DNA of 64,000 bases from Deltaproteobacteria bacterium. GTDB lineage: Bacteria > CG2-30-53-67. Of this stretch, positions 495 to 59,165 are shown in pieces. The translations under genes were made by a program, and so were the position numbers. The stretch spans positions 4,256 through 68,255 of the forward strand of contig JAADIO010000022.1 of the NCBI GenBank assembly GCA_013151235.1, given 5' to 3'. The notes under the pieces were generated by a model. It did no database searches. It was not told the DNA's origin and worked only from the letters and a program-made list of their open reading frames with translations. How positions within the stretch are numbered: the stretch's first letter is position 1; every line of letters begins with the position of its first letter.

Positions 495-1646
495 ATGCAC
501 TCCTACCGGAAAGAACGGCCTGATCTCGCTCCCTATGCGGCAAGAAGTGAGCGGTCCCGGGGACGACGTTATCAGGAATCGTTCAAGGACAACCGGACCG
601 CCTTTCAGCGCGACCGGGACCGGATCATCCACTGCGCTGCCTTCCGTCGTCTTGAATACAAAACGCAGGTATTCGTCAACCATGAAGGGGACTACTACCG
701 AACCCGGCTGACCCATTCCCTTGAGGTGGCCCAGATCGCACGGGGCACGGCCCGCGCCCTCGGGCTGAATGAAGAACTGGCCGAGGCAATTGCCCTCTCG
801 CACGACCTTGGGCACACCCCCTTCGGCCATTCGGGCGAGCATGTCCTGAACGACTTGATGAAAGAGCACGGCGGGTTCGAACACAACCGGCAGAGCCTCC
901 GGATTGTGGAAGAGCTGGAGGAGCGATACCCGGACTTTTCCGGTCTGAACCTTACCTACGAGACGCGGGAAGGAATCATCAAGCACTCCACCTATCACGA
1001 CAACCCCTCCATTACGGAGATGCAGGATTATCATCCCGGCGTGGTCCCGACGCTTGAAGCCCAGATCATCAACCTCGCGGACGAGATCGCCTACAACAAT
1101 CACGATATCGATGACGGACTGACCTCGGGTATGCTGGACCGGAAGGAACTCCGGGACGCCGTCCCCCTCGTCGAACGTGTTTTCACAAAGATCGAGAGGC
1201 AATGGCCGCAAATCGACGAAACCCGAAAAAAATATCAGGCCATCAGCCATCTCATCGGATTTCTCATCAATGATCTGGTGGAGCATTCAACGGCCCTTCT
1301 GAAGGAACACGACATCCGCTCCCTGGAAGATATGCGGGAGAAGAACGTGATGATTATCTCCTTCAGCCCGGAAACCCACAGAGAGAACACGGAATTGAAA
1401 CGGTTCCTCTATCACAACCTCTATACGCACTATCGTGTCGAGCGGATGCGAATCAAAGGAAAAATGGTCCTCACCTCCCTGTTTGAGACTTACATGGAGA
1501 ATCCCACCCTTCTGCCGAAAAAATACTACCGCATGATGGAGAAGGCGGGAAAACAACGGATCATCGCCGATTACATCGCAGGAATGACCGACCGCTACGC
1601 CCTGGACGAATACAAGAAGCTCTTTGAACCTTTTGAACGGACGTAA
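495..1646 (+). CDS. dgt: dGTP triphosphohydrolase-like HD-domain phosphohydrolase
   Basis: 383 aa; HD motif region HSLEVAQIARG...LSHDLGHTPFGHSGE characteristic of Dgt-like dNTPases. Confidence 0.85.
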   Translation: MHSYRKERPDLAPYAARSERSRGRRYQESFKDNRTAFQRDRDRIIHCAAFRRLEYKTQVFVNHEGDYYRTRLTHSLEVAQIARGTARALGLNEELAEAIALSHDLGHTPFGHSGEHVLNDLMKEHGGFEHNRQSLRIVEELEERYPDFSGLNLTYETREGIIKHSTYHDNPSITEMQDYHPGVVPTLEAQIINLADEIAYNNHDIDDGLTSGMLDRKELRDAVPLVERVFTKIERQWPQIDETRKKYQAISHLIGFLINDLVEHSTALLKEHDIRSLEDMREKNVMIISFSPETHRENTELKRFLYHNLYTHYRVERMRIKGKMVLTSLFETYMENPTLLPKKYYRMMEKAGKQRIIADYIAGMTDRYALDEYKKLFEPFERT

Positions 1647-1750
1647 GTCCAGGGCTCGGGAATCAGGAATCGGGGAACCGTTATTCTTTCATCACCACGG
1701 TTTAGACAATCGCGATCATCTGCCGCGGATACACTTCAAAGAATCATGCC

Positions 1751-30623: not shown

Positions 30624-31013
30624 ATGTACGATTCGGGTAAGGTTCTCTTGGGAATTATTATCTTTCTGGTCATGGTAACTTTTCCGCTTTACTACAACAT
30701 CGGAAGAGCCGATATCAAACCGGAGCCCGACCTGAACACCCTCGCCATACGGAAAATGGCGGTCAAACAGTGCATCGAAAAAACCCCGTACATGCGATCC
30801 AACCATATGAAGCTTCTGAAAGGTTGGATGGATGGCTTTCTCAAGGACGGAACCATGGAGTACAAGGCCGGTAACGGCAAAACATACGAAACCTCTTTCG
30901 ACACCTGCATGGAATGTCATGCAAGCCGGAAAAAGTTCTGTGACACCTGCCACAGCTATGCCGGGGTACAGCCATACTGCTGGAAATGCCATTCCCTGGA
31001 TGACGAGGGGTGA
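30624..31013 (+). CDS. small membrane-anchored tri-heme c-type cytochrome
   Basis: 129 aa; N-terminal TM helix; three CXXCH motifs (CMECH, CDTCH, CWKCH) packed within ~30 residues at the C-terminus. Confidence 0.75.
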   Translation: MYDSGKVLLGIIIFLVMVTFPLYYNIGRADIKPEPDLNTLAIRKMAVKQCIEKTPYMRSNHMKLLKGWMDGFLKDGTMEYKAGNGKTYETSFDTCMECHASRKKFCDTCHSYAGVQPYCWKCHSLDDEG

Positions 31014-42208: not shown

Positions 42209-43228
42209 TTATTGTGCAACCACAGTCACCTTGCGCGAAGGCGCGCTTTCATTCGGTTCCGGGGCATGGTCAAAGGCCGTGACCGAATATTCATAACGTA
42301 CCCCGGCGCTTACCGAAGAATCGGTGAAGGCCGTCCCCGGGGTTTTCACTTCTCCGATAAAGCGGGCATTCTTCTCTTTTTTCGTCCGCCGATAAACCCG
42401 GTAACCGGCCAGGTCCGTTTCTTTGTTTTCCTCCCAGAAGAGCCTGACCCGCCCCGGACCCGCGATCGCCTCTATCCCTATAGGGGACGCCGGGGCCTTC
42501 CGGTCCAGGGGAATGACCGAAACCTCGGGCGAAGACACACTTTCGATCCAGGGTGGCCCCCCGGCGGCAATGCTCCGTACGGCATAATGATAGGTCGTTC
42601 CGTTCCGCAGTCCCCCCTCTTCAAAGTGGGGCTTCCCGAGGGGAACGGCATTCACCGGATGAAGCGGAAAGGCGGCCTTCCCGCTTCGCCGGTAAACAAG
42701 GTAGCGTACACTCTCACCCGGCGGCGATTTCCATTGCAGGGTCGCCGTCCGATCCCCCGGCACCGCCGTCAGAGAAGACGGTGGCGGAGGAGACGGCTCC
42801 CAGAGAACAACCTCTTCCTCCGATTCCGCCCCGGCAAACCCCTTGCGGCTTACCGGAACCACGAGATAGCTGTAGAGCTTTCCCATCCACACTGGATCGA
42901 TATCAAGTTTCAGTTGCAGGCGACCATCCACGATCTCCGAAGACACCGGATCGACAAAAGCCAGGTCGTGAAAACGGCGGCAGTTGCATCCCCGCTGCCG
43001 GTCCGCCAGAAGATCCTCGTAGAAGAGCCGGTATCCACTGATCTCTTCCCGATGCTTCCCGTCCGGCGCCGGCCAGGTAAAAAGGACCGTCTTGCCCCGG
43101 ATGATGACCTCAAACCCGCCCACCGCCTTTGGGAGTTCAAGATCGGGAGAGACAAGAGGGGTCTTTACACCACAGGCCGTCCAGAGCAGTCCGAGGAGAA
43201 GAAAAACCCCGACCCGACATCCTGCCAT
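42209..43228 (-). CDS. lipoprotein with fibronectin type III-like domains
   Basis: Start at MAGCRVGVFLLLGLLWTACG (ATG 43228); FN3-like LTAVPGDRTATLQWKSPPGESVRYLVYRR. Confidence 0.5.
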   Translation of the reverse strand: MAGCRVGVFLLLGLLWTACGVKTPLVSPDLELPKAVGGFEVIIRGKTVLFTWPAPDGKHREEISGYRLFYEDLLADRQRGCNCRRFHDLAFVDPVSSEIVDGRLQLKLDIDPVWMGKLYSYLVVPVSRKGFAGAESEEEVVLWEPSPPPPSSLTAVPGDRTATLQWKSPPGESVRYLVYRRSGKAAFPLHPVNAVPLGKPHFEEGGLRNGTTYHYAVRSIAAGGPPWIESVSSPEVSVIPLDRKAPASPIGIEAIAGPGRVRLFWEENKETDLAGYRVYRRTKKEKNARFIGEVKTPGTAFTDSSVSAGVRYEYSVTAFDHAPEPNESAPSRKVTVVAQ

Positions 43229-43229
43229 C

Positions 43230-44633
43230 CTAACCACTCCGGCCGCGGCGGGGAGAAGGGGAAACCTTACGCCGGATCGCCGCAATCCGTTTTTTGACCC
43301 GGGCCGGTGCCGTTCCACCGGGAATGTCCCGGGAGGCAACGGACGCCTTCGGCGTAAGCACACCATAGATGTCCTTTTCAATGGAGGGGTGAAAGCTCTG
43401 CATCTCCTGCAGGGAGAGGGATTCAAGCCCCCGACCCGCGTCCATACAGAACCGGACGATTTTCCCCGTCACTTCATGAGCCGTGCGAAAGGGAAGTCCC
43501 TTCCGGACCAGGTAATCCGCCAGATCGGTGGCCGTGGAAAACCCCTTCGTTGCACACGACTCCATCCTCTCCCGCCGGATGGTCAGACTCTTGATCATCC
43601 CGGCGAATACCGTGAGCGACCCAACGACGGTATCGACGGTATCAAAGAGGGGCTCCTTGTCCTCCTGGAGATCCCGGTTATACGTGAGGGGCAGCCCCTT
43701 CAGGTTCGTCAGCATCGCCATGAGGTGGCCGTAAACCCGGCCCGTCTTTCCCCGGACCAGTTCCGGCACATCGGGATTCTTTTTCTGAGGCATGATACTG
43801 CTCCCCGTGGCGTAGTCGTCCCCCATCTCGACGAAAGAGAAGGGCTCACTCGACCAGAGGATCAGCTCTTCGCTGAAACGGGAAAGATGCATCATGATCA
43901 GGGAGGCCGCTGTGAAGAATTCGACCAGGTAATCCCGGTCGCTCACGGCATCCATACTGTTCTCCGTAACCCCCTCGAAACCGAGCTGATCGGCCACAAA
44001 CTCCCGGTCGATCGGGAAAGGGGTCCCGGCAAGGGCCCCGGATCCAAGGGGGAGGCGGTTGACCCGCTTCGCGCATTCGGTCAGGCGCTCCCGATCCCGG
44101 AGGAACATCTCACAGTAGGCCAGAAGATGATGGGCGAACAACACCGGCTGGGCGATCTGAAGATGAGTAAAACCCGGCATGATCACCCCCTCCCCGGCCT
44201 TCGCCTTCTCTATGAGAATGAGGATCAGACCCCGGATGAGATCATCAATCCCCCCGATGGCATCCCGGAGAAAGAGGCGGGTATCGAGGGCCACCTGGTC
44301 GTTCCGGCTCCGGGCCGTGTGGAGCCTGCCGCCCACGTCACCGATCTTCTCAATGAGCCGCCCTTCGATATTCATGTGGATATCTTCCAGCTCAGGACGG
44401 AAGGGAAAGGTCCCCCCCTCAATCTCCCGGGCGATGGAACGAAGCCCCTGCAGGATCTTCTTTGCATCCGCGGAGGGGATAATCTTCTGCCGGGCCAGCA
44501 TCCGGCAGTGGGCCATGCTCCCTTCAATATCGTAGGGGGCCAGCCGTTTGTCGTAATGGACCGACGCGGTAAAGGCCTCCACGCCCTTATCCATTGCTTT
44601 CGTAAAGCGCCCGCCCCAAGGTTTCTTCTTCAA
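43230..44633 (-). CDS. argH: argininosuccinate lyase
   Basis: [17 protein letters not shown] fumarase/ASL signatures. Confidence 0.95.
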
Positions 44634-44923
44634 AGATCACTCCTTTACGGATCATCAAAGGGGGTCTATCTATTTGAAAGTATTGACAAACAGATCTATC
44701 ACATCTTGGCCGGACATCTTATCAACCGGCCGATTCGATGTCAAGGAGGGAATCATACCCATCCGTCAACCGTCATGGTTTCTTCAAAGGGCTCTGAAGG
44801 AAGATGTAACAGGCGGGCAGATCCACCTGAATGGATGTCTAACCGGAAAATCGACAGTCGGCGTGGATTCGCGGCGGTCAAAGTTTTCGCCGCAGACAAG
44901 GCAACCCGGCGAGAGGAAACCGA

Positions 44924-45628
44924 TCACTCCGCAACGGGATTGTTCGATGCCGCTCCCCGGGCGATAATACGGAACGTGACAACCGGCACCTGAGGAAGGT
45001 CCGTACGGATCAGGGCAAGGCCGGAAAAATCCGGTTGTTCGGCCTTGCCGACGAACGCCACCGACACCTTGATCTCACCACCGGCAGGCACGGCAGGATC
45101 GTCGACAGAGATCCTGAGGCGGGTATCGAAGGGTTTTACGACCTCAAGATGGATCGGCTTCGCCGAGTGATTCGACAGAGTCACCGACCGGGAGACCACC
45201 TTCCCCGGAGGAACCAGGCCGAAGTTACAAATCAGGGGATTCACGGTAACGGGTTCCAGGACATTCCCTTTGATCCGGAGCAGGAATCGCCCGTCCGGCG
45301 CGTTGGTCAGGAGGGAAATCCCCTTCGACTGGGGACCCCTTTTGTGCCGGGAGTTAAAAACCACGAGAAGTTCGCCGCTCTTCCCCGGGGCGATCTCACG
45401 CGGGTAGTCACGGGCAACGGTGCAACCGCAGGTGGTTTCCACCTTGTAAATCTCCAGCGTCTCGTCCCCCCGATTTTCCAGTTCAAAGCGGTGTACCACC
45501 TGGGTCCCCTGGAGAATCGTTCCAAAGTCAAAGACCGGCGAAGAGACCGCCACTCGCGGCCCCACGGCCGCTGAAACCGCAGCACAGAGCATCATCATAA
45601 GAACAACGGCCAGGATCTTTCGTATCAT
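44924..45628 (-). CDS. DUF1573-family secreted protein
   Basis: Start MIRKILAVVLMMMLCAAVSA (ATG 45628); ETTCGCTVA motif typical of DUF1573 Ig-like domains. Confidence 0.6.
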   Translation of the reverse strand: MIRKILAVVLMMMLCAAVSAAVGPRVAVSSPVFDFGTILQGTQVVHRFELENRGDETLEIYKVETTCGCTVARDYPREIAPGKSGELLVVFNSRHKRGPQSKGISLLTNAPDGRFLLRIKGNVLEPVTVNPLICNFGLVPPGKVVSRSVTLSNHSAKPIHLEVVKPFDTRLRISVDDPAVPAGGEIKVSVAFVGKAEQPDFSGLALIRTDLPQVPVVTFRIIARGAASNNPVAE

Positions 45629-45732
45629 GGCGCCGCCCTCTCTTCCAGGAGGGATTTGCACCGCGTGTGGCTCATGCTTTTGGGCTTGACTTTTGACTTT
45701 GTTTCTCTCCGTGGTTAATGCTGTGGTTGCCG

Positions 45733-46560
45733 TTACTCCGCGTCCTTTGCACACCGAAAGCCGACGTCGTTGTGGTGATAACCTTCGATGGCAATCGCCT
45801 GCCGTCGGGTAATCCGCAACAGCGCGGCATTTGAACTCCATGCCCCCCCCCGGATCACGTGGATCCCCTTGCCGTACAGTCTGTTCGACATCTCATTGCC
45901 GGGGTACGGGGTATAGACACCCGCTGTCCATTCGGAGACGTTCCCGGCCATGTTGCGAACCCCGTAGGGCGAACTATCGGTCGCATAGAAGTCCCCGGGA
46001 ACGGTGCGGGTGTAGATGGGGTTGTGGAAGAGGGTCGCGGAGTAGCATGCCCAATAGCGGCCCCCGTGGTAGGGCGGCTCATTACCCCACGGATAGCGGC
46101 GCCCGTCGGTGCCCCGTGCGGCCTTTTCCCATTCCGCCTCCGTGGGGAGACGCTTTCCCGCCCACTTCGCATAGGCATCCGCATCCTTCCAGGTCACCTC
46201 GACCACCGGCAGTTCGTCCTTGCCCATCACCGGGTTCTTCAGTTCCACCGGCAGGGTCCGTCCGGTCGCCTCGGCAAATTTGCGGTACTCGCCCACGGTC
46301 ACCTCATGAGTATCAATATAGTAGGCGGGCAGATCCACGAGATGAGCGGGCGCCTCATCGTCGTACGAGTCGTCCGCTCCCATCCGGAAGGAGCCGGCGG
46401 GGATATAGGTCATTCCCGGGATCACCGCCGGCGGCTTTGCAGACTGCTGCTCGGCATGCTGCGCCACCTCTTTCGCCGCATGCTGCTCCGGCTTCCCGCT
46501 ACAGCCGGAACCGAAGGAGATCAAAACAAGAAGGAGAAAAACCATTCTGTAAGGGGACAT
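45733..46560 (-). CDS. FGE-sulfatase (SUMF1/formylglycine-generating-enzyme-like) domain lipoprotein
   Basis: GSFRMG...RGGAWSSNAALLRITRRQAIAIEGYHHNDVGFRCAKD; ATG 46560 with GGAG RBS. Alternative GTG at 46602 overlaps the upstream stop as GTGA. Confidence 0.8.
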   Translation of the reverse strand: MSPYRMVFLLLVLISFGSGCSGKPEQHAAKEVAQHAEQQSAKPPAVIPGMTYIPAGSFRMGADDSYDDEAPAHLVDLPAYYIDTHEVTVGEYRKFAEATGRTLPVELKNPVMGKDELPVVEVTWKDADAYAKWAGKRLPTEAEWEKAARGTDGRRYPWGNEPPYHGGRYWACYSATLFHNPIYTRTVPGDFYATDSSPYGVRNMAGNVSEWTAGVYTPYPGNEMSNRLYGKGIHVIRGGAWSSNAALLRITRRQAIAIEGYHHNDVGFRCAKDAE

Positions 46561-46598
46561 AATAAAATCTCCAATTCTTATGGATATCGACCGGCAGA

Positions 46599-48812
46599 TC
46601 ACCGATCGGCATGAGCCCAGGCAACGGCACGGTCGTAGTCCTTACCGATCGGCGTGCCGCGATAGTTGATGTTACGAGCGAGCAACGGAACGCCGGCAGG
46701 CGTGGTGCGATGGCACGCGCTGCACTCCACGGGTCCGGTGGAACCATCCGGGTTGTACTGGACCGCCTGCTGCGGCGACACCTCGTCATTGCCCAGGGGA
46801 TTGACCGGGAAAAGGCCGTGGGCCGCCTGATGGCACCCCTGGCAGGTGATCCCGGCATGGGCACTCGAAAAACGCATCAGACTGTATTTCTGTGGTTGAT
46901 CGACGGGGAAAAAACCACCCCCCATCGATTCCACAAAGGGCGGAGCGTGACAGTCGGCGCAATGCGGCAGACCCGCTGAAAACCAGTAATCCTTGCTGCC
47001 GGAGACATCACCATAAGAGACAGGAACGGCACCGTCCACTGCCGTTGCCGACACCGTGCCGTCTTTCTTCCGGTACCCGAGCGGTGCCCCTTTGCCCCGC
47101 TCCCAGGTAGCTTCGTTCCTGTCCCGCCCCTTCACTACCTTCGGGTCCAGGTAGCGGTCGATAAGCTGCTGCACGTCACCGCCGGTGAGTACCGCAGCAA
47201 TTTCCGGGATCGTTTTATTCCGCAATCCCGCTCCCGCGCCCGTCGCCGTATCGGTCAGCCGGTCCGCCCGGTAAAGGGCAATGGAAAGTCGGTTGTGACA
47301 GTGCGTGCAATAGAGCCCCCGGTCCTTGCCCTCCTCATCCCAGACGGTATCAAGGTACCATTTCCCGATCGCGTTCAGGTGACTCTTTGTGTGCAGTTCG
47401 GCCGCCCGGTACGGGTTTGAGTGGACGTCGCGGCCGGTGTAACTGCCTGCGGCATCCCGGTTGTCCCCCTTCGCGTACCGGTTGGCGCCATCCCGGGTAA
47501 CGGGGAAACGATCGAACCGACCCGCATCCGAGTGGGCCGGGTGGCACATCTGACAGTTCCCGGGCCGCCCCCCGGCGTCCGGAGCGGGCATCACCTCGGC
47601 ATGTTTTCTGTGTATCGCCTCGGTCAGCGACAACCGCGCCCGCACCTTCGAGTCGGCAATATTGGTCATGGGGCTGTCGTTCATCCGGAGACGACCGATG
47701 ACGTTATCCGCGTGGCACGAGGGACAGAAAACCGTCTGGCGACCCAGGCGGTTGAGGCTCGAGTTGTTGCTGTAGTTCCAGGTAAAATGGGTCTGCTCGT
47801 CCTTGTCGTGAAGTTCGAGGATGGAAATGGCCGCCGCCTGGGTGGTGGAGAAATGCTCGGTAGAATCACTGTAGGTCTTCAGCCAATAGCTGTATTCCGC
47901 TCGGTACTTCTTCGCCCGGTCGCCGTTCGCACGCTTCGTGCCATGGCACCGATCACAGGAGGGAGCATCGACGGGGATTACCCCCATGGCGGTCATGACA
48001 CTGCCGTCACGATCCATCACGAAACGGCCGGCTTTGTCCCGCAAGGTGATGATCACCCGCTGATAGGGCTGGTACTCCACCTCCTTGCCCGAACGGAGGC
48101 TTTTGTTTCCGCGCGAGTAGTCGAGGTAGGGAGTAAGCGGTAACCCTACGGCATCCCACAGATCAGGCGGAGCGAGGGGGATCGGGATATCGGTCGTGTC
48201 GTTTTCTCCGTCAACGAAAAAGCGTACGCCGCTCTCGCCGGTATAGTGAAGACTACGATCACGCTTCAGAATCGGCGGCCAATCAGTAATGCGCCGGCCG
48301 GTGATCCCATGGTCGTCATCGGGAGGGTGGGTATTCCAGACGTAAATGCGATCCTTCGCCGTCGCCCCGGCCGGTCGGACGCCATCGGGCCGACCGTAGG
48401 TATAATAGGGACGGATGAACTCGACCGGTGGCTGGTCGAAGGGATCGAGCCGCTCCCCGTTCCGGTCAACATCATACTTGACCCCCCAGTAGGAAAGCTT
48501 GTTGCCGGAGGAATAGGAATTTCCCTGAAAACCGAACTCGGGCTGCACACCGTCCGTCGGGGTCATCAGTTTCGGCGGCGTCCCGTCCGATCCTTCCGTA
48601 CGGATTACCTGTACCTGCACGCTGTTAAAGGGAGGCAGGGCGGCCGTATATTTGAAATCGAAGCTGGTGATGTGCATCCCCAATTCCGAATGGATCAGGA
48701 TTACATAACGGTGCTGGGGCTCATGGAACTCTTCCAGGGCAGGTGCCCTAACCGGAAACAACGCAACCATGCCCAGGAACAGCAGGACAATCCTCGTGCA
48801 ATAAGCGCTCAC
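46599..48812 (-). CDS. 7-heme c-type cytochrome with N-terminal non-heme domain (paralog of the 1662-aa cytochrome)
   Basis: GTG start overlapping the PPIase stop (GTGA); signal peptide; CXXCH motifs CDRCH, CPSCH, CQMCH, CTHCH, CADCH, CQGCH, CSACH. Confidence 0.85.
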   Translation of the reverse strand: MSAYCTRIVLLFLGMVALFPVRAPALEEFHEPQHRYVILIHSELGMHITSFDFKYTAALPPFNSVQVQVIRTEGSDGTPPKLMTPTDGVQPEFGFQGNSYSSGNKLSYWGVKYDVDRNGERLDPFDQPPVEFIRPYYTYGRPDGVRPAGATAKDRIYVWNTHPPDDDHGITGRRITDWPPILKRDRSLHYTGESGVRFFVDGENDTTDIPIPLAPPDLWDAVGLPLTPYLDYSRGNKSLRSGKEVEYQPYQRVIITLRDKAGRFVMDRDGSVMTAMGVIPVDAPSCDRCHGTKRANGDRAKKYRAEYSYWLKTYSDSTEHFSTTQAAAISILELHDKDEQTHFTWNYSNNSSLNRLGRQTVFCPSCHADNVIGRLRMNDSPMTNIADSKVRARLSLTEAIHRKHAEVMPAPDAGGRPGNCQMCHPAHSDAGRFDRFPVTRDGANRYAKGDNRDAAGSYTGRDVHSNPYRAAELHTKSHLNAIGKWYLDTVWDEEGKDRGLYCTHCHNRLSIALYRADRLTDTATGAGAGLRNKTIPEIAAVLTGGDVQQLIDRYLDPKVVKGRDRNEATWERGKGAPLGYRKKDGTVSATAVDGAVPVSYGDVSGSKDYWFSAGLPHCADCHAPPFVESMGGGFFPVDQPQKYSLMRFSSAHAGITCQGCHQAAHGLFPVNPLGNDEVSPQQAVQYNPDGSTGPVECSACHRTTPAGVPLLARNINYRGTPIGKDYDRAVAWAHADR

Positions 48813-50248
48813 TTTTGACCTCCGGAGGATGCCGGCGGCAACGCCTTACCCCGTTTTGCCGTCGGCAGGGTCACCCGGCCGAACCAGTCCGGATCGATAA
48901 CGACCTTGTGCTTTTTGCGCAGCTCCGCCAGATAGGGTCCCATATTCTTCTTGAAGAAGAATTCATTGTAGTGTTCGCGCTTGTCGCTGTTATTGATCCG
49001 TTTCAGGGAAAGCTGCTCCGGTGCGACTCGCTCCAGGGTGCGAATGAGATGCCACCCGAGCGGCGATTTCACCGGCCGACTGACCTCTTTTACCTTCAAG
49101 GCAAAGGCCGCCTTTTCCAACTCGGGAAGGATCTTCCCCCTCCCTTTTGTGATCCATCCCAAGACCCCCGAAGTCCGCCCGGCGGACGGATCGATGGAGC
49201 GCTCCTGGGCGAGCTTGTAGAAAGGATCGTAGTCCTCGGTAGTCTCCTTGAGGATCTGCTTGCGCAACGCTTTCGCCTCGGCCCTGGTCTTCACCACGAT
49301 CTGCTGCAGACGCCGCCGTTCGGGAATGGTAAAGTCCTTCGGATGTTCCTTGTAGTATTCGGCAAAAGCCTTATCCGTGGGGATATACTTTTTACGCAAT
49401 TTCGTCACGAGCTGCGCTGCGGTGAGGTCGCGCACAAAGTCGTCGTGGCGGTGCCGGTAGGTGGGGTCCCGATCGAGGCCGAGGCCGCGTGCCTTGCGTG
49501 CCTTGAGAATCTCAACTCCCATGGCAAGAAGTTCGGCACGCCGTTCCCCCGTACTTTTCTTGTTCTTAAGGCGAGGCCGTGCCCATCGCCAGGTCACCGG
49601 CTCGCCTGCAACCGTGGCGATTACCTGCCCCGGCTGTCGCTTATCGTCATCGTTCAGTGCAATATCGGCATCCTTCACCTCCACCCGGAGCGTCTTTCCC
49701 AAACTCTCCGCAAGTTCCTTACGTACCTCGTCGAAACGGCGGGCGGCAAGCTTGTTACGCATAACCCGGCGCATCTCGGCATCAAGTTTGTTGGCACCAT
49801 GTTTGGTGTTCTTCTCCTTCTTCCACGCAGCCTCCACCTCTGCATCGGTAATCTTGCTGCGTCGGTTGTAGAAGTCACGGGTATAGAGGTCGGCGAGGGT
49901 TTGAATCTCCCACGCCTTCAGGCGGGTACGGAATTTTTCGCTCTGATCCAGCCCTTCCGACTTTGCCTCAAGATAGAGAAGACGCTGGTTGATGAGATTC
50001 GTAAGAAAAGCCTGTTTCACCCGCCGTCCCTGACCGGAGGAGTTAAGTTGATCCGCGTACGCCTGCAGCGGGGTGGAGTCAATCGCCTGGATCACCTCCC
50101 AGTCGTGGATGGCAAGGCCGTCCACGGTGGCGACGACGCCGGATTCCCCTGCGGGTTTCCCCTTCGCCGCATCGGCTGCAAGGGTCGTGCCGGCAAGGAG
50201 TACCAGAAAGGAGAAAAGAAGAGAAACGACGACCGAAAGCTTCTTCAT
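48809..50248 (-). CDS. parvulin-type peptidyl-prolyl cis-trans isomerase (SurA/PpiD-like periplasmic chaperone)
   Basis: 479 aa, signal peptide, SurA-N-like region and parvulin domain (GVLGWITKG...GWHLI); strong GGAGG RBS. Confidence 0.75.
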   Translation of the reverse strand: MKKLSVVVSLLFSFLVLLAGTTLAADAAKGKPAGESGVVATVDGLAIHDWEVIQAIDSTPLQAYADQLNSSGQGRRVKQAFLTNLINQRLLYLEAKSEGLDQSEKFRTRLKAWEIQTLADLYTRDFYNRRSKITDAEVEAAWKKEKNTKHGANKLDAEMRRVMRNKLAARRFDEVRKELAESLGKTLRVEVKDADIALNDDDKRQPGQVIATVAGEPVTWRWARPRLKNKKSTGERRAELLAMGVEILKARKARGLGLDRDPTYRHRHDDFVRDLTAAQLVTKLRKKYIPTDKAFAEYYKEHPKDFTIPERRRLQQIVVKTRAEAKALRKQILKETTEDYDPFYKLAQERSIDPSAGRTSGVLGWITKGRGKILPELEKAAFALKVKEVSRPVKSPLGWHLIRTLERVAPEQLSLKRINNSDKREHYNEFFFKKNMGPYLAELRKKHKVVIDPDWFGRVTLPTAKRGKALPPASSGGQK

Positions 50249-50580
50249 AAATAACCTCCAACATCCGCTTTAATGAGTGTTTCGCAAAGTACCCGAAAAA
50301 CCGTATACTGTCAAGGGGTTAAGACCCGCATTTTTCGAACCTGCAAATCCCCCCTACCCCCCCTTTCCGGCGCCTCCCCCTTTTTAAAGGGGGACTGAGG
50401 GGGATTCCGCGCTTGTCTTTGATTTTCCTTGCGCCCTTGGCGTCCTTTGCGAGAAGGCGCTTTCCGCTTTTAGCCTTTGACCGGGGCGGTTTGTAAACCG
50501 CCCCCTACATCGATTTGTTTTTCTTTGCGGCCTCTGCGTCTCTGCGGTGAGATCACCTCTTGATGGTTTCATAATAGACC

Positions 50581-50612
50581 AAAGGGGGTGGACCGTAAGG
50601 CCCACCCCCTTT
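50581..50612 (-). terminator. GC-rich hairpin downstream of the giant cytochrome gene (candidate terminator)
   Basis: AAAGGGGGTGG-loop-CCACCCCCTTT, perfect 11-bp stem; moderate U content follows on the minus strand. Confidence 0.45.
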
Positions 50613-50650
50613 GTGCTGTGGCGGATTGGGACCCGCCGGGTTCATAATGT

Positions 50651-53600
50651 TTACGGGTTCGACAAGGCACCCACATGGCAATAACCGCACGAGTTTGTCA
50701 TCCCCGCAGGCGTGGTATCTCCCGCAGGATCGGGGTCACCGTTTGCAGCCAGATCGGTCCTCATGGCATCTACGAACTCCGTGGTCACCACGTCGAAGGT
50801 ATGGGAGTGGATATCCCCCTCACGGTACTGGTTCGAACCATCCGTGAGGGAGTTCTCCCACCGCGCCGTTTTGGCCGTCTTCGGCATATGGCAGTTGGTG
50901 CATCGCCCCATACCGCTACCCACCGGATCATAGGTCATGTAACTCATAGTACTGTTCACCCACTTCCCTATGTGACGCATCACCTCGGAGGCGATCGTGG
51001 CCTCATCGGTCGGGGTCGTGGTCCCGGCGGCAAGATCATCCGCCATCGACTGGGTAACAAACTGGAAGTTCGCAGGATCGGCGCCTTCCAGGCTTTCGTC
51101 CGGAGTCGTTTCACCCGCACCCGGTGCTCTGAGGGAACTGTTGTGACAACCCAGGCAGAGAGCGTTGTTATCACCGTTGGCAGTGAGCTGATGCTCTTCG
51201 ACCACACCGGCGGCACTGGGACCGCCATGAGCGTCATGACAGTCGATACAGGTCACCATCTCCATGTCGTTCTTGTACATCGTCGTACGCACCACGTCGT
51301 AGTACTGCTGGTGGTGGCCCTTCGAATGGTTGAAGGAACCGGTCACCTGCGTTACATTCCCCGCCGCAGTAGAAGTCACGAAGGGGTTGGCCGACTCATA
51401 ACCGATATCCTGCCAGCTATGGTGATCGGTGGTATAGTCGATCGCCTCCCAGTATCCGCCGACGGTCCCGAAGTCGGGAGCCAGGCCGGTGCCGTCTGCG
51501 GTGCCGTAGTACTCGGCGGGACTCATCCCCGGCTTGAAGACCGTAATCGCCGGATCGACAGTGAGATCTCCCACGGAAGCGAAGCCCGCATGAGCGCCGC
51601 TTGAATCAAGGACGCTGTGACCGTGACCGCGCTGGTGACAGGTGCCGCAAACCATCGTCAGACGTCCCGGAGTCAGAAGATCCGGCTGGACGATATTGTA
51701 GCCCTCGCCGCCGTTTGCCACATGTTCGGAACCCGGACCGTGACAGCGCTCGCAGCCGATGTTGCCGGCGTAGACGTTGGACGCGACCTGGTCAATGTAC
51801 TGGGTGATGAAATTGCCGTTGCTATCCTTGGTAATGCCGACACCGCCGTGGCAGCCGGCGCAGTCAACACCAAAGGACTCGGTGGGTGCACCCGTAGGCG
51901 TCGTACCAAGGCCTGCGGGTGTAAAAACGTCGGCACCCATGGTGGTCGGTGTGGACCACTTACCGGAGAACTCACCGTTCTCCCCGAAGGCAGCGGGGTC
52001 GGATCCGGACTCGTTCCACTGGAACGGAGCCGGATAATAATAGGAGGAACCGCCGGCCTGCACGTGCGCCGTTCCCGGCTCTCCATTGGCGCCGACAAGA
52101 AGCATGTAGCGCTGCTTGGCAACTCCCTCACCGCCATAGGTGAAAGCAACGTTGTACGTAGCCGAAAGGTTCCCGCTGCATGTGGCGTTATCCGCCATCT
52201 GCATTGTGGGCGTACCCCCCGAGTAACCCAGCTTGGCGTAATGGGTGTTGCCCTGGGCGGAGAAGCTAATGCAGTCGCCATTGGCGAATGCCGCCAAGCC
52301 ACCATCAGCGTTGGCTGCCCAACTCGTCATATCCTGCAGACTGTTGGCCATCGTATAGCCGGGGTTGGACGGATCCGGAACGCGGAATCCGAGGAAGTGA
52401 AGGGTGTGCTTCAGCGAACCCTTCGCATGGCACCCAAGACAGGTAGACGAACCGACGTAGGTCGCCGAGGTGGACGGTGTCATCGAAATCGTGATGTCAC
52501 CGAAGGCCGGCATGTTGACTACGTGGCCGTTGACCACCTTGAGAGTTTCACGCCGAGCCCACGGCAGGTGTGCCGTATCGCTCCCCGCAGGGATGACGCA
52601 GGCATAGTAATCACCGTCGGCCAGCGGCACACCATTAAAATTGTAGCTGCCATCAGCTGCGGTGGTCGCAAAACCGCCGTTGGAATTGGACCCGCCGATC
52701 ACTGCGTTGGCGACATCCTCAATCGGCTGAATGGAACTGCTCGCCTCCACATCGGCAGCAGAAACAAAGACCACGGAGGCATTGGCAACCTTCGCCGTGG
52801 AGGTATCAACGACCGTACCGTGAAGTGCAAGACCGGTCATATTATTGTGATTGGCGCAATCGTCGTTGGCCGGGGCTTCCGGAATCATCGTGCGCCCGTA
52901 GCCGAGCGGCAGGCCCAACCCGTTGTCGGTTGCGTTTCGTTCGACCGTCGGCAGGGTACTCCTCGCGTCCCGCACGGTATGCATGTAGATCACCGCCAGG
53001 TCATAGTTGGTGCCGATCGTTACGCCGTTCACCTTCTTCTTCGCCGCGACTGTCGGTACACCGCCGTTGTTGGTCACGTGACATGCGCCACAGGTAACGG
53101 GACCGTGCGAACCGTTGGCATTATACTGGAGCGCAGCGTTGCGGGTCGTCGGATCGTTCAGCGGCGACACCGGGTAGAGCCCGTGGGTCGACTCGTGACA
53201 CGACTGACAGGCGATCCTCTCGTGACCCTTGGAGTGGCGCATGAGGGCGTACTTGCCGGGCTCGGCCCAGGGCGGATTCATCCCCTGGGACTCGACAAAT
53301 GGATACGCGTGACAGTCGGCGCAGTGCGGCTCACCCGCAGAGGCCCAGAAGTCACTCCCGTCGGTCACCACACCGTAGGGGACACCGGGGACAACTTCGC
53401 CGCCCATCCCCTTGTACTGGTAGTGGTCATTGGTATCATCAATCACCGTCTCACCGCCGAGTTCGGAGGCAATATCCACTGCTTCCTGCTCGGTCAGCGG
53501 CGTATCGACACCGCCGAACATCAGGCCTTCGGCCGCAGCGTTCTGCGTGGCAACCAGGAGGTCTTCAGCCGATTCGCCGGCAATCGCAGGTCCCAGTCCA

Positions 53601-55639
53601 CCGATACCGCCGGCACCGTGGCAGAGATCGCATTCCTTGTCCTCGTAGACGTTGGTGCCGCCTGTCGGAGTGACGGTCCGCAGTTTCGGGTCCATGTACT
53701 TGGAGGTCAGGTCCGACACGGAGACACCCAGTGCGGCGGCAATCGACGGAATCCCCGAATCACGCAGGGTTGAGGTCGCGGGACGCGCCGTCGAACCCGG
53801 AATGGTGGGATCGCCGATCCCGGTGTCCGTTTTCCACAGTTCGGAGGCGAGCCGGTTGTGACAGTTCGTGCAGTAGATTCCCTTGCCGGTGCCCGCATCG
53901 ACGTTATCCAGGTACCATTGGCCGATGGCGTTCAGGTGGCTGGGCGTATCGTCCGGCTCGTTGTTACGGTCCATGTTGCCATGAACGTCCCGATTGGTGA
54001 AACAGCCCACGGAGTCACGGATGTCCGTCTGGGCGACGGAGGTCAGCGTCCCCTGGTAGCTGAGCGGGAAGTTGGTCATGTCGCCGTTCTGGGTATGGGC
54101 CGGATGGCAGGCCTGGCAGTTGCCGGCGCGGCCGTTGTTATCCGGCAGCGTACGCTCAACAGCGCCGGAATGACGCATATGGATGGCATAGGTCAGCGCC
54201 TGGTTGCCGACATTGTCCCGGCTGGCAGGGTAACGCTCCGCCTCGGAGGCTGCCGGCACGGACGGAGACTGGTTGTCGCAGAAGCGGTCACCGGCCTGGA
54301 AACGGCCTACGATGTTATCTGCGTGACATGACTGACACATCACTGATTGCCGACCGAGACGGTTGTTCCCGACACCACTCGGGTCGTAGTTGCCAAGGAA
54401 GTTGGTGCCGAAATCGGAATCGTGGATACCGAGCATCCCCACCGCCGCCGACTTCAGCCGGGCATAATATCCCGTGGCCCCCTGGGCGAGCCAGTAATTA
54501 TACTCCTGCAAGGCGTGACCACCCGGATCACCCGCGGGAATGGTTCCGCTGGCGGGATCATAGCCATGACACTTTTCACATGCCGGGGAGTCGATTGGGG
54601 CGGTGCCGAAAAACTGCACCGGTGTTCCATCGTGCTGCAGCATCTGGTTGCCGGTGGAAGCGTTGTACATGTAGACCCACTGCTCCTGAAAGGGCCTGAA
54701 ATCGCTCTCGGCGATGTCGGTAATGTTTTTGCCCACCACCAGGGAGTCGTTGAACGGGGTCAGCGCAATGCCGACAACATCCCAAACATCGGCGGTCGTC
54801 AGAACCACGGGCACATCGGAGAGACGCATGCCATCGAGGCCGAGACCGGCGCCCGCGGCATCAATGATCTTGGTATAGGTATAAACGACCGTCCCCTCAT
54901 TGCCCACATAGGTGAGGCCTGGACGGCCGAGACCTAAGCCGTTAAGTGCATCGGCCGACTTGTCCGCAAGCTTGTTGGCCATCGCCCCGAAGGTGGGGCC
55001 GTGGTCCTGGGGAATATTGAGGGAGGCACCACCGACAGAGATACGATCGGTCGCCAGGGCACCCGCCGCCTTGCCGCCTTCGAGGAAGGGGAGAACGGGC
55101 GGATCACCCGGACCGGCACCGCCGGAAACGCCGATGCCGGAGCCGGCATCCTTCCCGGTAAAGGGATTGTAAGTATAGAGAGAGTCGAACTCAACATTCG
55201 ACAACATGTCCTCAGGGTCGGTGGTGGTCCCGTTGACGTTCGAGTCGGGACTACCGTCGGCCCATTTCTCGGTGCCGTTCCCGGCATCATAGGGGACTGT
55301 CCAGTAGGCCAGCTTTGCTCCCTCCGAGAAGGAATTGTCCTTGAACTCATAGCCGAGCTTAATGTTGTCGGCGGGTGTGAGTTGCTTCGGGTGTGCACCG
55401 GTTTTCACCGCCTGCGCCTGGATCGAGTTGAAGGGCGGCAGGACGCAGCAATAGGAAAAATCAAAACCGGTACAGTGCATCCCCAACTCATAGTTGGTAA
55501 AAATGAGATAGTTCTTCTTGGGTGAGTTGAGATGGCGGCCCCGGCTGCGCCTGCCGCGGGCAACGGCATTCGTCGCCAGCGAGGCGACAAAAAGTACGCC
55601 CAGGACCAGCATCAGAATCTGAATGGCTGTCTTACGCAT
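50651..55639 (-). CDS. giant (~1662 aa) ~16-heme c-type cytochrome with N-terminal non-heme domain and an internal Cna-B/carboxypeptidase-regulatory-like domain
   Basis: Start at MRKTAIQILMLVLGVLFVASLATNAVA (ATG 55639, AAAGGAG RBS); 16 CXXCH motifs counted by eye; TAADGSYNFNGVPLADGDYYACVIP prealbumin-like domain. The ORF-track start at 55828 would overlap the upstream gene. Confidence 0.85.
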   Translation of the reverse strand: MRKTAIQILMLVLGVLFVASLATNAVARGRRSRGRHLNSPKKNYLIFTNYELGMHCTGFDFSYCCVLPPFNSIQAQAVKTGAHPKQLTPADNIKLGYEFKDNSFSEGAKLAYWTVPYDAGNGTEKWADGSPDSNVNGTTTDPEDMLSNVEFDSLYTYNPFTGKDAGSGIGVSGGAGPGDPPVLPFLEGGKAAGALATDRISVGGASLNIPQDHGPTFGAMANKLADKSADALNGLGLGRPGLTYVGNEGTVVYTYTKIIDAAGAGLGLDGMRLSDVPVVLTTADVWDVVGIALTPFNDSLVVGKNITDIAESDFRPFQEQWVYMYNASTGNQMLQHDGTPVQFFGTAPIDSPACEKCHGYDPASGTIPAGDPGGHALQEYNYWLAQGATGYYARLKSAAVGMLGIHDSDFGTNFLGNYDPSGVGNNRLGRQSVMCQSCHADNIVGRFQAGDRFCDNQSPSVPAASEAERYPASRDNVGNQALTYAIHMRHSGAVERTLPDNNGRAGNCQACHPAHTQNGDMTNFPLSYQGTLTSVAQTDIRDSVGCFTNRDVHGNMDRNNEPDDTPSHLNAIGQWYLDNVDAGTGKGIYCTNCHNRLASELWKTDTGIGDPTIPGSTARPATSTLRDSGIPSIAAALGVSVSDLTSKYMDPKLRTVTPTGGTNVYEDKECDLCHGAGGIGGLGPAIAGESAEDLLVATQNAAAEGLMFGGVDTPLTEQEAVDIASELGGETVIDDTNDHYQYKGMGGEVVPGVPYGVVTDGSDFWASAGEPHCADCHAYPFVESQGMNPPWAEPGKYALMRHSKGHERIACQSCHESTHGLYPVSPLNDPTTRNAALQYNANGSHGPVTCGACHVTNNGGVPTVAAKKKVNGVTIGTNYDLAVIYMHTVRDARSTLPTVERNATDNGLGLPLGYGRTMIPEAPANDDCANHNNMTGLALHGTVVDTSTAKVANASVVFVSAADVEASSSIQPIEDVANAVIGGSNSNGGFATTAADGSYNFNGVPLADGDYYACVIPAGSDTAHLPWARRETLKVVNGHVVNMPAFGDITISMTPSTSATYVGSSTCLGCHAKGSLKHTLHFLGFRVPDPSNPGYTMANSLQDMTSWAANADGGLAAFANGDCISFSAQGNTHYAKLGYSGGTPTMQMADNATCSGNLSATYNVAFTYGGEGVAKQRYMLLVGANGEPGTAHVQAGGSSYYYPAPFQWNESGSDPAAFGENGEFSGKWSTPTTMGADVFTPAGLGTTPTGAPTESFGVDCAGCHGGVGITKDSNGNFITQYIDQVASNVYAGNIGCERCHGPGSEHVANGGEGYNIVQPDLLTPGRLTMVCGTCHQRGHGHSVLDSSGAHAGFASVGDLTVDPAITVFKPGMSPAEYYGTADGTGLAPDFGTVGGYWEAIDYTTDHHSWQDIGYESANPFVTSTAAGNVTQVTGSFNHSKGHHQQYYDVVRTTMYKNDMEMVTCIDCHDAHGGPSAAGVVEEHQLTANGDNNALCLGCHNSSLRAPGAGETTPDESLEGADPANFQFVTQSMADDLAAGTTTPTDEATIASEVMRHIGKWVNSTMSYMTYDPVGSGMGRCTNCHMPKTAKTARWENSLTDGSNQYREGDIHSHTFDVVTTEFVDAMRTDLAANGDPDPAGDTTPAGMTNSCGYCHVGALSNP

Positions 55640-55655
55640 GGAAGCTCCTTTCATT

Positions 55656-56588
55656 TTACACATGGTGCCCTCCTTTCCCACCTGCACGACGACGAAGCCC
55701 CAACAGGCCGAAAAGCCCGGTCGCCAGGAAGACGAGGGACGAAGGCTCGGGAACCATTGCCGTGGTGGTAAGGGCGTTAAGATTGTCGCTCGACAACAGA
55801 CCCAGGTCCGCGGCCGTGATGGCGACATTCGAGGTGTTGTTCAGAAAAAGGTCCGCGGCCGATCCGTAGCCGGAGGCGGAAGCCAGCGAAAACAGAACAT
55901 CTCCCGTAACAGCATCAATGGCCAGCGCGTCTAAGTCCTGTCCCTGCTCAATACCAAGCGACGCGGCAGTCCGGAAGATGTTACCAAGACTGTTGAGATA
56001 GATGTTCCCATCACCGGCAAGGGAGAAGTAGACATCCCCGTCCTGACCCGGAACATAAGGTGCGGCACCGAGATCCACGGCATCGAGATCATCATTGTTC
56101 TGTCCGTAAGCGCTATCGTTCAGACCGTAGTCCTCACCATAAGTATCCGCAAAGTTGACCCCCGCAAGCTGGCCCGGGTTGGCGTCGAAAAGCGTCCCCA
56201 TCTGCCGACTGGTCGAGGCCTTCCATGCCACGTCCGTGCCCGAAGCGCCCTGGCTGTTCGCATCCACCGAGAAATAGACGTCGTAGATGCTTGCGGGATC
56301 AGCACTGTCAAACCCGAAGGAGAGGGCGTCGATCTCGTCGGCCGCGGACAATCCGAGATCGGCCGGCGTCAACGCCACGGTGTTGGTGCCGTCGAGCGGC
56401 GTATCGAAGAGATGGGCGCCGTCCGGACTGGTGCTGTATACGTCATTAGGCATATTCGTTCCGGGAGCAACGCCGATCCCGTCATTGAGCACCGAGAAGG
56501 TGTCGGCCCGGCCGATCGCCGGAAGAGCGAAGATACAAATCATTGAGACAACCGCCAGAAGGCGGAGCCTTAACCCATAACATTTCAT
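55656..56588 (-). CDS. PEP-CTERM sorting-signal protein 1 (Asp-rich secreted protein)
   Basis: C-terminus VPEPSSLVFLATGLFGLLGLRRR (PEP motif, TM, basic tail); signal peptide from ATG 56588; 16-bp gap to the cytochrome start. Confidence 0.75.
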   Translation of the reverse strand: MKCYGLRLRLLAVVSMICIFALPAIGRADTFSVLNDGIGVAPGTNMPNDVYSTSPDGAHLFDTPLDGTNTVALTPADLGLSAADEIDALSFGFDSADPASIYDVYFSVDANSQGASGTDVAWKASTSRQMGTLFDANPGQLAGVNFADTYGEDYGLNDSAYGQNNDDLDAVDLGAAPYVPGQDGDVYFSLAGDGNIYLNSLGNIFRTAASLGIEQGQDLDALAIDAVTGDVLFSLASASGYGSAADLFLNNTSNVAITAADLGLLSSDNLNALTTTAMVPEPSSLVFLATGLFGLLGLRRRAGGKGGHHV

Positions 56589-58286: not shown

Positions 58287-59165
58287 TTATGCACCGGCGG
58301 CCTTTACGGAACGATGATGACGCCGGTGGAGACCGGCGAGAACCGGCAGGAAGGATGCGATCAGGAAAAAAGAGGAGGGCTCGGGTACGGCAGCGGCGCT
58401 GACCCGGATATTGTCCACGATCAGGCCGGTGTCGAAGCTCCCGTCCCCCTCATCTCCGACAAAAAATTCCAGGGTGTAGTCGCCGGCGCCCAGGATAGAA
58501 CTGGTGACCGTCTGGAACCCGCCGAGATAGGTCCCGTCGTAAAAGCTGCTCGCCGGAAGTGTGGGATCGCTGGTCGTCCAGGAAATGCCGCTGAAGTCAC
58601 CGGCGTATAGCGGTGCAAAGGAACCATCGTTGTAGCCGTCGTCCAAGGAGCACTGAACCAGGGAGATCGGAGCGCCCGCGGCAGGCAGGAGGCGGATCTC
58701 GGCGATATCGGCAAGGCCGGCGGTACTCCATCCATCGAACTCACTGGTAGCAATAGTCCAGTCGAGAGCCAGAGTGGAGGGGGCCGTAAGCGTAAAAGAC
58801 TGGCTCAAAGTGGCGATGTCGAACTCGTCGGCGCCGCTTCCGTCCCGGTCAAACCCCGAATCCACACCCGGCGGCATCCCGTTCACAAAGCTGTCGGGAC
58901 TGGTCGATAGGAGCGCAAACCAACTGCCGTCGGTTGCCAAATAGCCGGTCTGACCACTAATATTTTTATCCGGGCTATGGTAGTCGGGGTTGATCCGCTG
59001 GACGTTGCCGGAAGCGGTCCAGCCGGACAGGTCGGTTTCAAAAGAAAGGTTGGTGAGCCCCGTAGCGAAGGCCGCCGCCGGGACGAACAGACAGAAAACT
59101 GCGATCACCGCCATCCAGCGGAGTACGACATTCCGAATCTTTAGTTTTATACTGTATAACTTCAT
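58287..59165 (-). CDS. PEP-CTERM sorting-signal protein 3
   Basis: C-terminus VPEPSSFFLIASFLPVLAGLHRRHHR; N-terminal signal peptide. Confidence 0.75.
   Translation of the reverse strand: MKLYSIKLKIRNVVLRWMAVIAVFCLFVPAAAFATGLTNLSFETDLSGWTASGNVQRINPDYHSPDKNISGQTGYLATDGSWFALLSTSPDSFVNGMPPGVDSGFDRDGSGADEFDIATLSQSFTLTAPSTLALDWTIATSEFDGWSTAGLADIAEIRLLPAAGAPISLVQCSLDDGYNDGSFAPLYAGDFSGISWTTSDPTLPASSFYDGTYLGGFQTVTSSILGAGDYTLEFFVGDEGDGSFDTGLIVDNIRVSAAAVPEPSSFFLIASFLPVLAGLHRRHHRSVKAAGA

Follow-up and report, generated by a model that had tools for sequence, protein, structure and literature searches.

The locus

This study concerns two multiheme cytochrome genes, referred to here as A and B, which lie near each other on the minus strand of a 64,000-nucleotide stretch of bacterial DNA (contig JAADIO010000022.1; the whole stretch is called the window below, and all positions are counted from its first letter). 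Protein A carries seven CXXCH heme-binding motifs and protein B sixteen, and exact counting at the minus-strand coordinates below bears out what an earlier reading of the same letters, the original prediction, had reported. Protein B joins two cytochromes in a single frame. Its N-terminal part (B-N) is a paralogue of A within a family that we call family 1, and its C-terminal part belongs to a second family, family 2, which resembles the surface cytochrome OcwA and is found elsewhere as free-standing proteins. The parts of the two genes are as follows.

50651..55639, minus strand: gene B, 1662 aa, fusion cytochrome with 16 CXXCH (family-1 module, sandwich and OcwA-like module)
55559..55639, minus strand: Sec-type signal peptide of B, MRKTAIQILMLVLGVLFVASLATNAVA, with no lipobox, read from the sequence
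54581..55552, minus strand: family-1 N-domain of B (residues 30-353), heme-free and beta-rich, no Pfam match
55445..55483, minus strand: motif GMHCTGFDFSYCC of B, the core of ELGMHCTGFDFSYCCVLPPFNS, conserved in over 110 of the 120 nearest family members and, without exception, in the 'long' and 'short' paralogues of other metagenomic loci
52856..54580, minus strand: family-1 heme region of B (residues 354-928), seven core CXXCH and one clade-specific CXXCH, colinear with A
53618..53632, minus strand: extra CDLCH at B residue 670, in an insert between core hemes 4 and 5, confined to the B clade (Bn, the L002 orthologue and P0246)
52832..52855, minus strand: fusion junction ANHNNMTG (residues 929-936), between ..PANDDC, the end of the family-1 part, and LALHGTV.., the start of the family-2 part
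52472..52831, minus strand: Transthyretin/CarboxypepD_reg-like beta-sandwich (residues 937-1056), the N-terminus of the family-2 module
50654..52471, minus strand: OcwA-like octaheme module (residues 1057-1662), 8 CXXCH
46599..48812, minus strand: gene A, 737 aa, family-1 paralogue with 7 CXXCH, a degenerate motif GMHITSFDFKYTA and Ser at the fourth Cys position
48738-48812, minus strand: signal peptide of A
47958..48737, minus strand: N-domain of A (residues 26-285), directly after the signal peptide

Genes A and B

Gene B starts with an ATG at 55639 that has AAGGAG 6 nt upstream; an alternative start lies at 55654, and the frame is open to 55828. Both proteins begin with Sec-type signal peptides. 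In a pairwise BLASTP comparison, A 1-559 matches B 1-653 (E = 5e-99, 34% identity) and A 607-737 matches B 762-890 (E = 3e-37, 53% identity), and the whole of A is colinear with B residues 1-890. The similarity thus covers all of A, the heme-free N-terminal domain included, and goes beyond the generic spacing of CXXCH motifs. All seven core heme motif columns are kept in both proteins. The heme-motif strings that had been listed earlier do recur in the same order, and the extra CDLCH of B is confirmed. A shared non-heme N-domain of about 130 residues had also been proposed; such a domain is real, and its extent had been set too short, since the heme-free region ahead of the first CXXCH measures about 260 aa in A and about 325 aa in B. 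On these alignments, A and B are true paralogues.

The N-domain has no match in Pfam or NCBIfam, even at E <= 10. The heme regions give generic Cytochrome_C7 matches only, together with a borderline match to the MtrC/MtrF domain II/IV model of Pfam (31.2 bits for B and 26.6 bits for A, against a cut-off of 30). Neither A nor B has a CXXCK or other atypical heme motif.

A whole-gene fusion in B

The composite nature of B is seen most directly at the junction, which was examined in an alignment of B, its unfused orthologue, two fused orthologues and five free-standing family-2 proteins. Homology to family 1, which the unfused orthologue shares, ends at B residue 928. Homology to family 2 starts from residue 937, the point at which the free-standing family-2 proteins have just passed their signal peptide and linker. 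A search with residues ~874-1662 of B as the query found proteins of 690-820 aa that stand alone, with identities reaching 57% over 91% of the query and with CarboxypepD_reg and Paired_CXXCH annotations. The consensus N-terminus of these proteins is an LxGC lipobox, a lipoprotein signal, and their genes stand among other multiheme cytochrome genes, beside ACIII-like operons or open reading frames (ORFs) without a family match.

Related genomes supply both the unfused and the fused state. On two related Nitrospirota contigs (L002 and L003), in which the A orthologue is 77% identical to A, the B orthologue is 78% identical over B 1-932, carries eight CXXCH and then stops; no remnant of family 2 is detectable in these loci or in a third, L011. 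In an independent Nitrospirota metagenome-assembled genome (MAG), L007, there is a fused orthologue with 78% identity over B 15-1334, at which point it runs off the contig end, and a further fused orthologue, P0246, is 72% identical over B 2-1655 and carries 16 CXXCH. The junction peptide PANDDCANH[N/D]N..L[A/D]LHGTV is present in both. A junction common to two other sequences, together with an unfused eight-heme sister, shows that the fusion is real and specific to one lineage, and that it arose once and has been maintained since. The original prediction had seen in B a modular growth in which eight more hemes accreted at the C-terminus. The family does add modules, as shown below for single hemes; the eight hemes, though, came in as a whole second gene fused in frame.

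It is worth pointing out that giant cytochromes are common. That multiheme cytochromes grow by duplication and fusion is also well known and has been discussed (PMC9250108). What this locus offers to the debate in that paper between fusion and 'grafting and pruning' is a case of whole-gene fusion that is clean and datable, with an unfused sister and three fused orthologues.

A foreign origin of the C-terminal half of B was considered on the basis of composition and rejected: the in-frame GC content at third codon positions (GC3) is 0.74 in the N-terminal part and 0.70 in the C-terminal part, and the other genes of the window range from 0.68 to 0.75.

Between B and P0246, the OcwA-like part is 65% identical and the family-1 part 83%. 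The lower conservation of the OcwA-like part is consistent with an outer module that adapts faster.

A separate observation concerns the start of the gene. In L002 (3496-7236), L003 and P0246 (residues 1-300), the upstream PEP-CTERM gene and the B-like cytochrome form one uninterrupted frame, called as proteins of 1246 aa and 1905 aa. In the window the two genes are in different frames with a TAA stop between them (55639-55660). The single frame of the relatives may be a true N-terminal fusion or an over-called start.

Family 1: size, spread and conserved motif

A search of 5.8 billion proteins with A as the query returned more than 380 family-1 homologues, mostly 'hypothetical proteins' of 760-830 aa; A itself, looked up as an exact sequence in the assembly collection, gave no record there. 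They are carried by Nitrospinae, Nitrospirae, Chromatiales, Sedimenticola, Ca. Endoriftia, Gallionella and Methylococcales, and their hosts are mainly chemolithotrophs that oxidize sulfur, iron, nitrogen compounds or methane. Among the matches listed, 120 of 120 homologues have exactly seven CXXCH, and more than 110 of the 120 contain GMHCTGFDF[ST]YCC in the N-domain. The N-domain alone had been suggested as a query, and such a search proved productive: a profile of it, run against 1.84 billion representatives at 50% identity, found 454 clusters. Of the 25 longer hits inspected, every protein that appears complete carries hemes downstream (7, 8, 9 or 16), and the matches followed by few or no hemes look like truncated fragments.

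An alignment of 48 family-1 proteins has the seven core heme motifs in all 48. Extra hemes occur at three places: between core hemes 4 and 5, in the B clade only; after core heme 7, where one or two are added in the 'long' clade and in others; and before the N-domain, in two proteins. Conservation is also marked in the N-domain. The near-invariant family motif ELGMHCTGFDFSYCCVLPP, which B keeps, falls in a stretch of 22 residues, ELGMHCTGF[DE]FxYCCVLPP[YF]NS, that is near-identical in proteins otherwise only 30-40% identical. A fourth conserved Cys, at position 457 of A and position 546 of B, is found in 117 of 123 sequences. A lipobox Cys is present in about 40% of family-1 proteins.

No description of family 1 was found in the literature searched. 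The novelty of the locus lies in this family, in the motif and maturation partners that the family conserves, and in its clean fusion to an OcwA-like module. Most multiheme cytochrome families are without an assigned role even though they drive the microbial redox chemistry of iron, sulfur and nitrogen, and family 1 is a sizable addition to them: it has no database model, and its hundreds of clusters at 50% identity extend over Nitrospirota, Nitrospinota, Gammaproteobacteria (including the Riftia symbiont, Sedimenticola and methanotrophs) and Gallionellaceae. Its constant features are seven core hemes, conserved maturation genes and an N-domain of as yet unassigned fold. Since cultured carriers exist, for example Sedimenticola and Methylomarinovum caldicuralii, whose family-1 protein is MIT9_P1245, the family is open to experiment.

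Divergence of A and B

The original prediction had taken the seven-heme protein to be the source of the N-terminal half of the giant one. The comparison does not support such a copy. A and B-N are 34% identical, no nearer to each other than to family-1 members of other phyla (about 40% for A and about 37% for B-N), which argues that A was not simply copied into B. In a neighbour-joining (NJ) tree, A and B sit on long branches, about 1.0 away from the other sequences, among which the distance is 0.44, and their clades group in 75% of bootstraps; with both branches this long, the grouping may be due to long-branch attraction. A second NJ tree keeps A, B, the 'long' clade and the 'short' clade all separate. 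We also tried to place A and B in the 'short' and 'long' clades of metagenomic paralogues and dropped the attempt, the tree holding the four clades apart with A and B long-branched. As judged from these distances, the duplication is old and not a recent local copy.

The non-heme Cys/His pattern adds a direction to this divergence. Where B reads HCCCC, at His55, Cys56, Cys64, Cys65 and Cys546, A reads HITAS, with only the His and flanking residues kept. The closest orthologues of A (87-77% identity) likewise have Ile, Thr, Ala and Ser at the four Cys positions, and two of the four cysteines survive in the more basal part of the A clade. B retains the His/Cys motif and A has lost all four non-heme cysteines, which makes A the derived copy and not the template.

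The gene cluster in the window

Genes A and B belong to a cluster of about 14 kb on the minus strand, which runs from three PEP-CTERM genes through B, a hairpin, a peptidyl-prolyl isomerase (PPIase) gene and A to an FGE-sulfatase gene and a DUF1573 gene, and is flanked by housekeeping genes. Besides A and B, its features are as follows.

58287..59165, minus strand: third PEP-CTERM protein, C-terminal VPEPSS...RRHHR in the translation, homologues in L002 and L007
56876..57697, minus strand: PEP-CTERM protein, Pfam PF07589, homologue in L002
55656..56624, minus strand: PEP-CTERM protein, Pfam PF07589, stop 16 nt before the B start, homologue directly preceding the B orthologue in L002, L007 and P0246
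50580..50613, minus strand: strong GC-rich hairpin of 15 bp, just after the B stop, in the 402-nt gap before the PPIase gene
48809..50248, minus strand: parvulin-type PPIase with SurA-like N-terminus, 479 aa, Pfam Rotamase_2, Rotamase and Rotamase_3, stop overlapping the A start by 4 nt
45733..46602, minus strand: FGE-sulfatase (SUMF1/EgtB-like) domain protein, PF03781, E = 8e-57, start overlapping the A stop by 4 nt
44924..45841, minus strand: DUF1573 / Ig-like secreted protein, last gene of the cluster, PF07610, E = 7e-30

The hairpin after the B stop may be a terminator, an attenuator or a stabilizer of the RNA, splitting the cluster into two transcription units. The FGE-sulfatase gene is translationally coupled to A and is kept after the A orthologue in L002, L003 and L011, Nitrospirota relatives only. 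No CxPxR motif was seen by eye in the short B stretch CCVLPPFNS, the rest of A and B not having been scanned for it.

The sole other CXXCH protein in the 64 kb is DsrJ (30624-31013, plus strand), a membrane-anchored triheme protein of 129 aa that scores 153.6 bits with the NCBIfam model NF038038 (cut-off 100). Its gene stands isolated between those of the ATP synthase and purD, without further dsrMKJOP genes as neighbours, and it marks the host, an uncultured bacterium, as a Dsr-bearing member of the Nitrospirota. Three long antisense ORFs on the plus strand (48815-50254, 51617-53773 and 43092-44993; 479, 718 and 633 aa) were set aside as shadow ORFs typical of GC-rich DNA.

The neighbourhood of family 1 in other genomes

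The pairing of a family-1 gene with a PPIase gene is not peculiar to the window. We surveyed 80 metagenome loci by tblastn and found a PPIase on the same strand in 60 of them: directly downstream of the family-1 gene in 40, between two family-1 genes in 13 and upstream in 7. A redoxin lies downstream on the same strand in 33 of the 80 loci and on the opposite strand in 9 more, and a NapC/NirT cytochrome directly upstream of the family-1 gene in 17. Individual loci tell the same story. The PPIase is beside the family-1 gene in L001, L008, L009 and L010. In Methylomarinovum, Endoriftia, a Nitrospinae MAG and Gallionella the family-1 gene is followed by a parvulin-type PPIase, with a TlpA-like redoxin next in two of these; in the Gallionella locus, a NapC/NirT tetraheme precedes the family-1 gene.

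At least 14 loci are ordered as a long paralogue (1045-1290 aa, 9 CXXCH), the PPIase, a canonical seven-heme protein and the redoxin. Because paired family-1 copies around a PPIase recur in at least 14 unrelated loci, the arrangement seen in the window is a recurrent design and not a local oddity. Loci with this operon, in which the PPIase is about 500 aa long, include L013, L015, L024, L031, L036, L037, L039, L047, L054, L079 and others. Another sub-group has the order cytochrome c, NapC/NirT, family-1 gene, PPIase and redoxin. In L007, the PEP-CTERM genes upstream of the fused cytochrome have in their midst a gene (1163-2557, plus strand) for a sigma-54-dependent activator whose N-terminus is Cys-rich and PAS-like, and sigma-54 activators are also adjacent in L001, L009, L015, L024 and L039.

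Proposed role and alternatives

We consider it moderately probable that the locus is a secreted-redox cluster built on a family-1 plus PPIase core, with a diverged paralogue pair of which one member, B, has been fused to an OcwA-like cytochrome to give an exported 16-heme conduit. Of this, the paralogy, the family with its gene neighbours, the lineage-specific fusion with its junction, and the fold of the C-terminal half are established by the results above; the role as a conduit is inferred. The function would likely be that of an electron conduit in the cell envelope or outside the cell, and the signal peptides together with the OcwA-like fold make an extracellular site plausible. In the mechanism we envisage, B would be exported by Sec and act as a single 16-heme wire, in which the family-1 part passes electrons to, or takes them from, the OcwA-like terminal module, and this module in turn contacts redox partners that are insoluble or outside the cell. 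Folding of the Pro-rich motif of the N-domain would fall to the PPIase; in other lineages the redoxin would also take part in maturing the Pro- and Cys-rich N-domain. Protein A, which lacks the Cys site, would serve as a relay or partner. In the B sub-lineage, the fusion removed the lipoprotein signal and linker of the second gene, and B has also gained one heme in a loop. Read as a Rosetta stone, the fusion points to a common electron path for family-1 cytochromes and surface terminal reductases. Such a natural fusion to an OcwA-type module provides a testable hypothesis for the place of family 1 in electron transfer.

Several points weigh against this proposal. Neither the cluster nor the 64-kb window has a gene for an outer-membrane porin or a periplasmic decaheme cytochrome, and the lack of a porin leaves the route of the 170-kDa B protein to the surface unexplained. 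Family-1 and family-2 genes are never adjacent in the other loci examined (L001, L004-L006, L008-L090), so the functional link rests on one fusion event. AlphaFold2 (AF2) models hold no hemes, and heme-to-heme continuity over the junction is a presumption. No expression or biochemical data for family-1 members were found in the literature searched. Finally, the near-invariant His/Cys motif and the redoxin and NapC/NirT neighbours fit a periplasmic enzyme as well as they fit a wire.

This last point leads to the main rival, which would also be the more novel outcome: that family 1 consists of periplasmic multiheme enzymes whose invariant His and four Cys form a catalytic or metal site near a heme. 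The PPIase and the TlpA-like redoxin would then help such an enzyme to mature, and NapC/NirT would be its partner on the quinol side; in B, the enzyme would have acquired an OcwA-like module for electron transfer or catalysis, and A would be a non-catalytic paralogue. The heme-copper sulfite reductase MccA, described below, is the model for this reading. The near-identity of the 22-residue motif amid 30-40% overall identity speaks for such an enzyme, as do the fourth Cys in 117 of 123 sequences, the 10-11 invariant non-motif His for seven hemes in the alignment, and the frequency of redoxin and NapC/NirT genes next door. OcwA itself, which reduces nitrite and hydroxylamine, has two hemes with open coordination, and the hosts mainly live by oxidizing sulfur, iron, nitrogen compounds or methane. 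On the other side, A and B have no CXXCK or other atypical heme motif, about 40% of family members are lipoproteins, the A clade is under selection without the cysteines (orthologues 87-66% identical), and the conserved neighbours suggest no candidate substrate. Taken together, we regard the enzyme as unlikely, although worth keeping in view. A more specific idea is still more tentative: the His, the CX7CC and the distal Cys of the N-domain, beside a di-proline, could form a new redox or catalytic site matured by the PPIase and the TlpA-like redoxin, whether as a metal centre, a Cys-ligated or cross-linked heme, or a redox-switch disulfide pair. If this were true, family 1 would be an unrecognized class of multiheme oxidoreductases, widespread in chemolithotrophs that oxidize sulfur, iron, nitrite and methane; in the fusion, the N-domain site would be wired directly to a surface reductase of the OcwA type, with A as a pseudo-enzyme partner that lacks the cysteines.

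The other two alternatives concern how B came to be. One would have a local duplication of the seven-heme gene, with one copy growing stepwise at its C-terminus by one heme, the sandwich and eight hemes. The genes are indeed neighbours and colinear, their clades group in 75% of NJ bootstraps, and other lineages do add one or two hemes at the C-terminus; the bootstrap grouping, however, may reflect long-branch attraction, and at 34% identity A and B-N are no nearer to each other than to other phyla. Moreover, a single family of free-standing lipoprotein genes, with up to 57% identity, comprises both the sandwich and the eight hemes, and the eight-heme protein of the sister lineage has nothing past the junction. 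Stepwise growth is thus improbable overall, and for the C-terminal half it is already largely refuted. The other alternative is that the giant ORF is an artefact, with a chimeric assembly, a lost stop codon or a frameshift joining two genes. Metagenome assemblies can be chimeric, and some gene calls merge the upstream PEP-CTERM gene with the cytochrome. B, however, has no frameshifts or internal stops, and the junction peptide recurs in orthologues that have diverged to 78% (L007) and 72% (P0246) identity with the frame kept. The family-2 signal peptide and linker are cleanly absent and not read through, and in-frame GC3 is uniform across B. We therefore give hardly any credence to an artefact.

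Comparison with known systems

In the AF2 model, residues 937-1662 of B have the heme-core fold common to the OcwA-like proteins and the NrfA-c554-MccA superfamily. The family-2 profile, searched against PDB sequences, matches OcwA (2e-13), 6qvm (7e-14) and chain A of 6r2q (5.5e-12; the molecule name in the table reads 'Cystathionine beta-synthase', and the entry is one which we take to be the MtrCAB complex). OcwA is an experimentally characterized terminal reductase of the cell surface in the NrfA/c554/MccA structural superfamily, with two open-coordination hemes and activity on nitrite and hydroxylamine, and its heme core superposes on that of MccA (PMC6703420). OcwA has nine hemes, two of them His-only and one His/Met, and the B module has eight CXXCH; the module is for this reason called OcwA-like and not an OcwA orthologue. 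It differs in further respects from OcwA of Thermincola potens (nonaheme, PDB 6I5B) and from the S-layer undecaheme cytochrome of Carboxydothermus ferrireducens (6QVM). The heme motifs number eight and not nine or eleven, an N-terminal transthyretin-like sandwich and a large beta insert are added, the host belongs to the Nitrospirota and is not a Gram-positive Firmicute, and the module is the C-terminal half of a fusion where the other two are separate proteins. A surface location and a terminal reductase activity are hinted at indirectly, by the lipobox and the cytochrome neighbours of the free-standing relatives.

With MtrC, OmcA and UndA, the proteins share one or more beta-rich non-heme domains joined to heme domains and a frequent lipoprotein anchor. 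The architecture of MtrC and OmcA, ten hemes in two pentaheme domains alternating with two beta-barrel domains, was looked for in A and B and is not present. The C-x7-CC spacing of the N-domain recalls the CX8C disulfide in domain III of MtrC, a resemblance that serves as a lead only.

MccA is an octaheme heme-copper sulfite reductase with two Cu-binding cysteines and an adjacent gene, mccB (sirB), for a probable PPIase. MccA/SirA and family 1 are alike in being multiheme proteins with conserved non-heme cysteines and such a gene beside them. Family 1, however, has neither the CX15CH motif nor NrfCD-type partners, and searches of PDB sequences and folds found no sequence or fold similarity to chains of the 4RKM type.

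The PPIase gene also brought to mind two further systems. The Uet cluster of Ca. Tenderia includes the tetraheme UetA and the PPIase UetB, and PCC3 of the Gallionellaceae has large multiheme cytochromes of variable heme number that have been proposed as long extracellular wires. Membership in either was rejected, given the lack of a porin and of matching heme counts. In the Uet and in the MofA/MofB pairs, as here, the gene for a secreted redox protein adjoins one for a dedicated PPIase. UetA, though, has four hemes, and the porin, triheme c7, NHL proteins and undecaheme of Uet are all lacking at our locus, while MofA is a multicopper oxidase, unlike A and B. PCC3 is set apart by gene content, its 21-27-heme periplasmic subunit, porin and inner-membrane protein having no counterparts here; what the two have in common is a large multiheme cytochrome that may serve as a wire.

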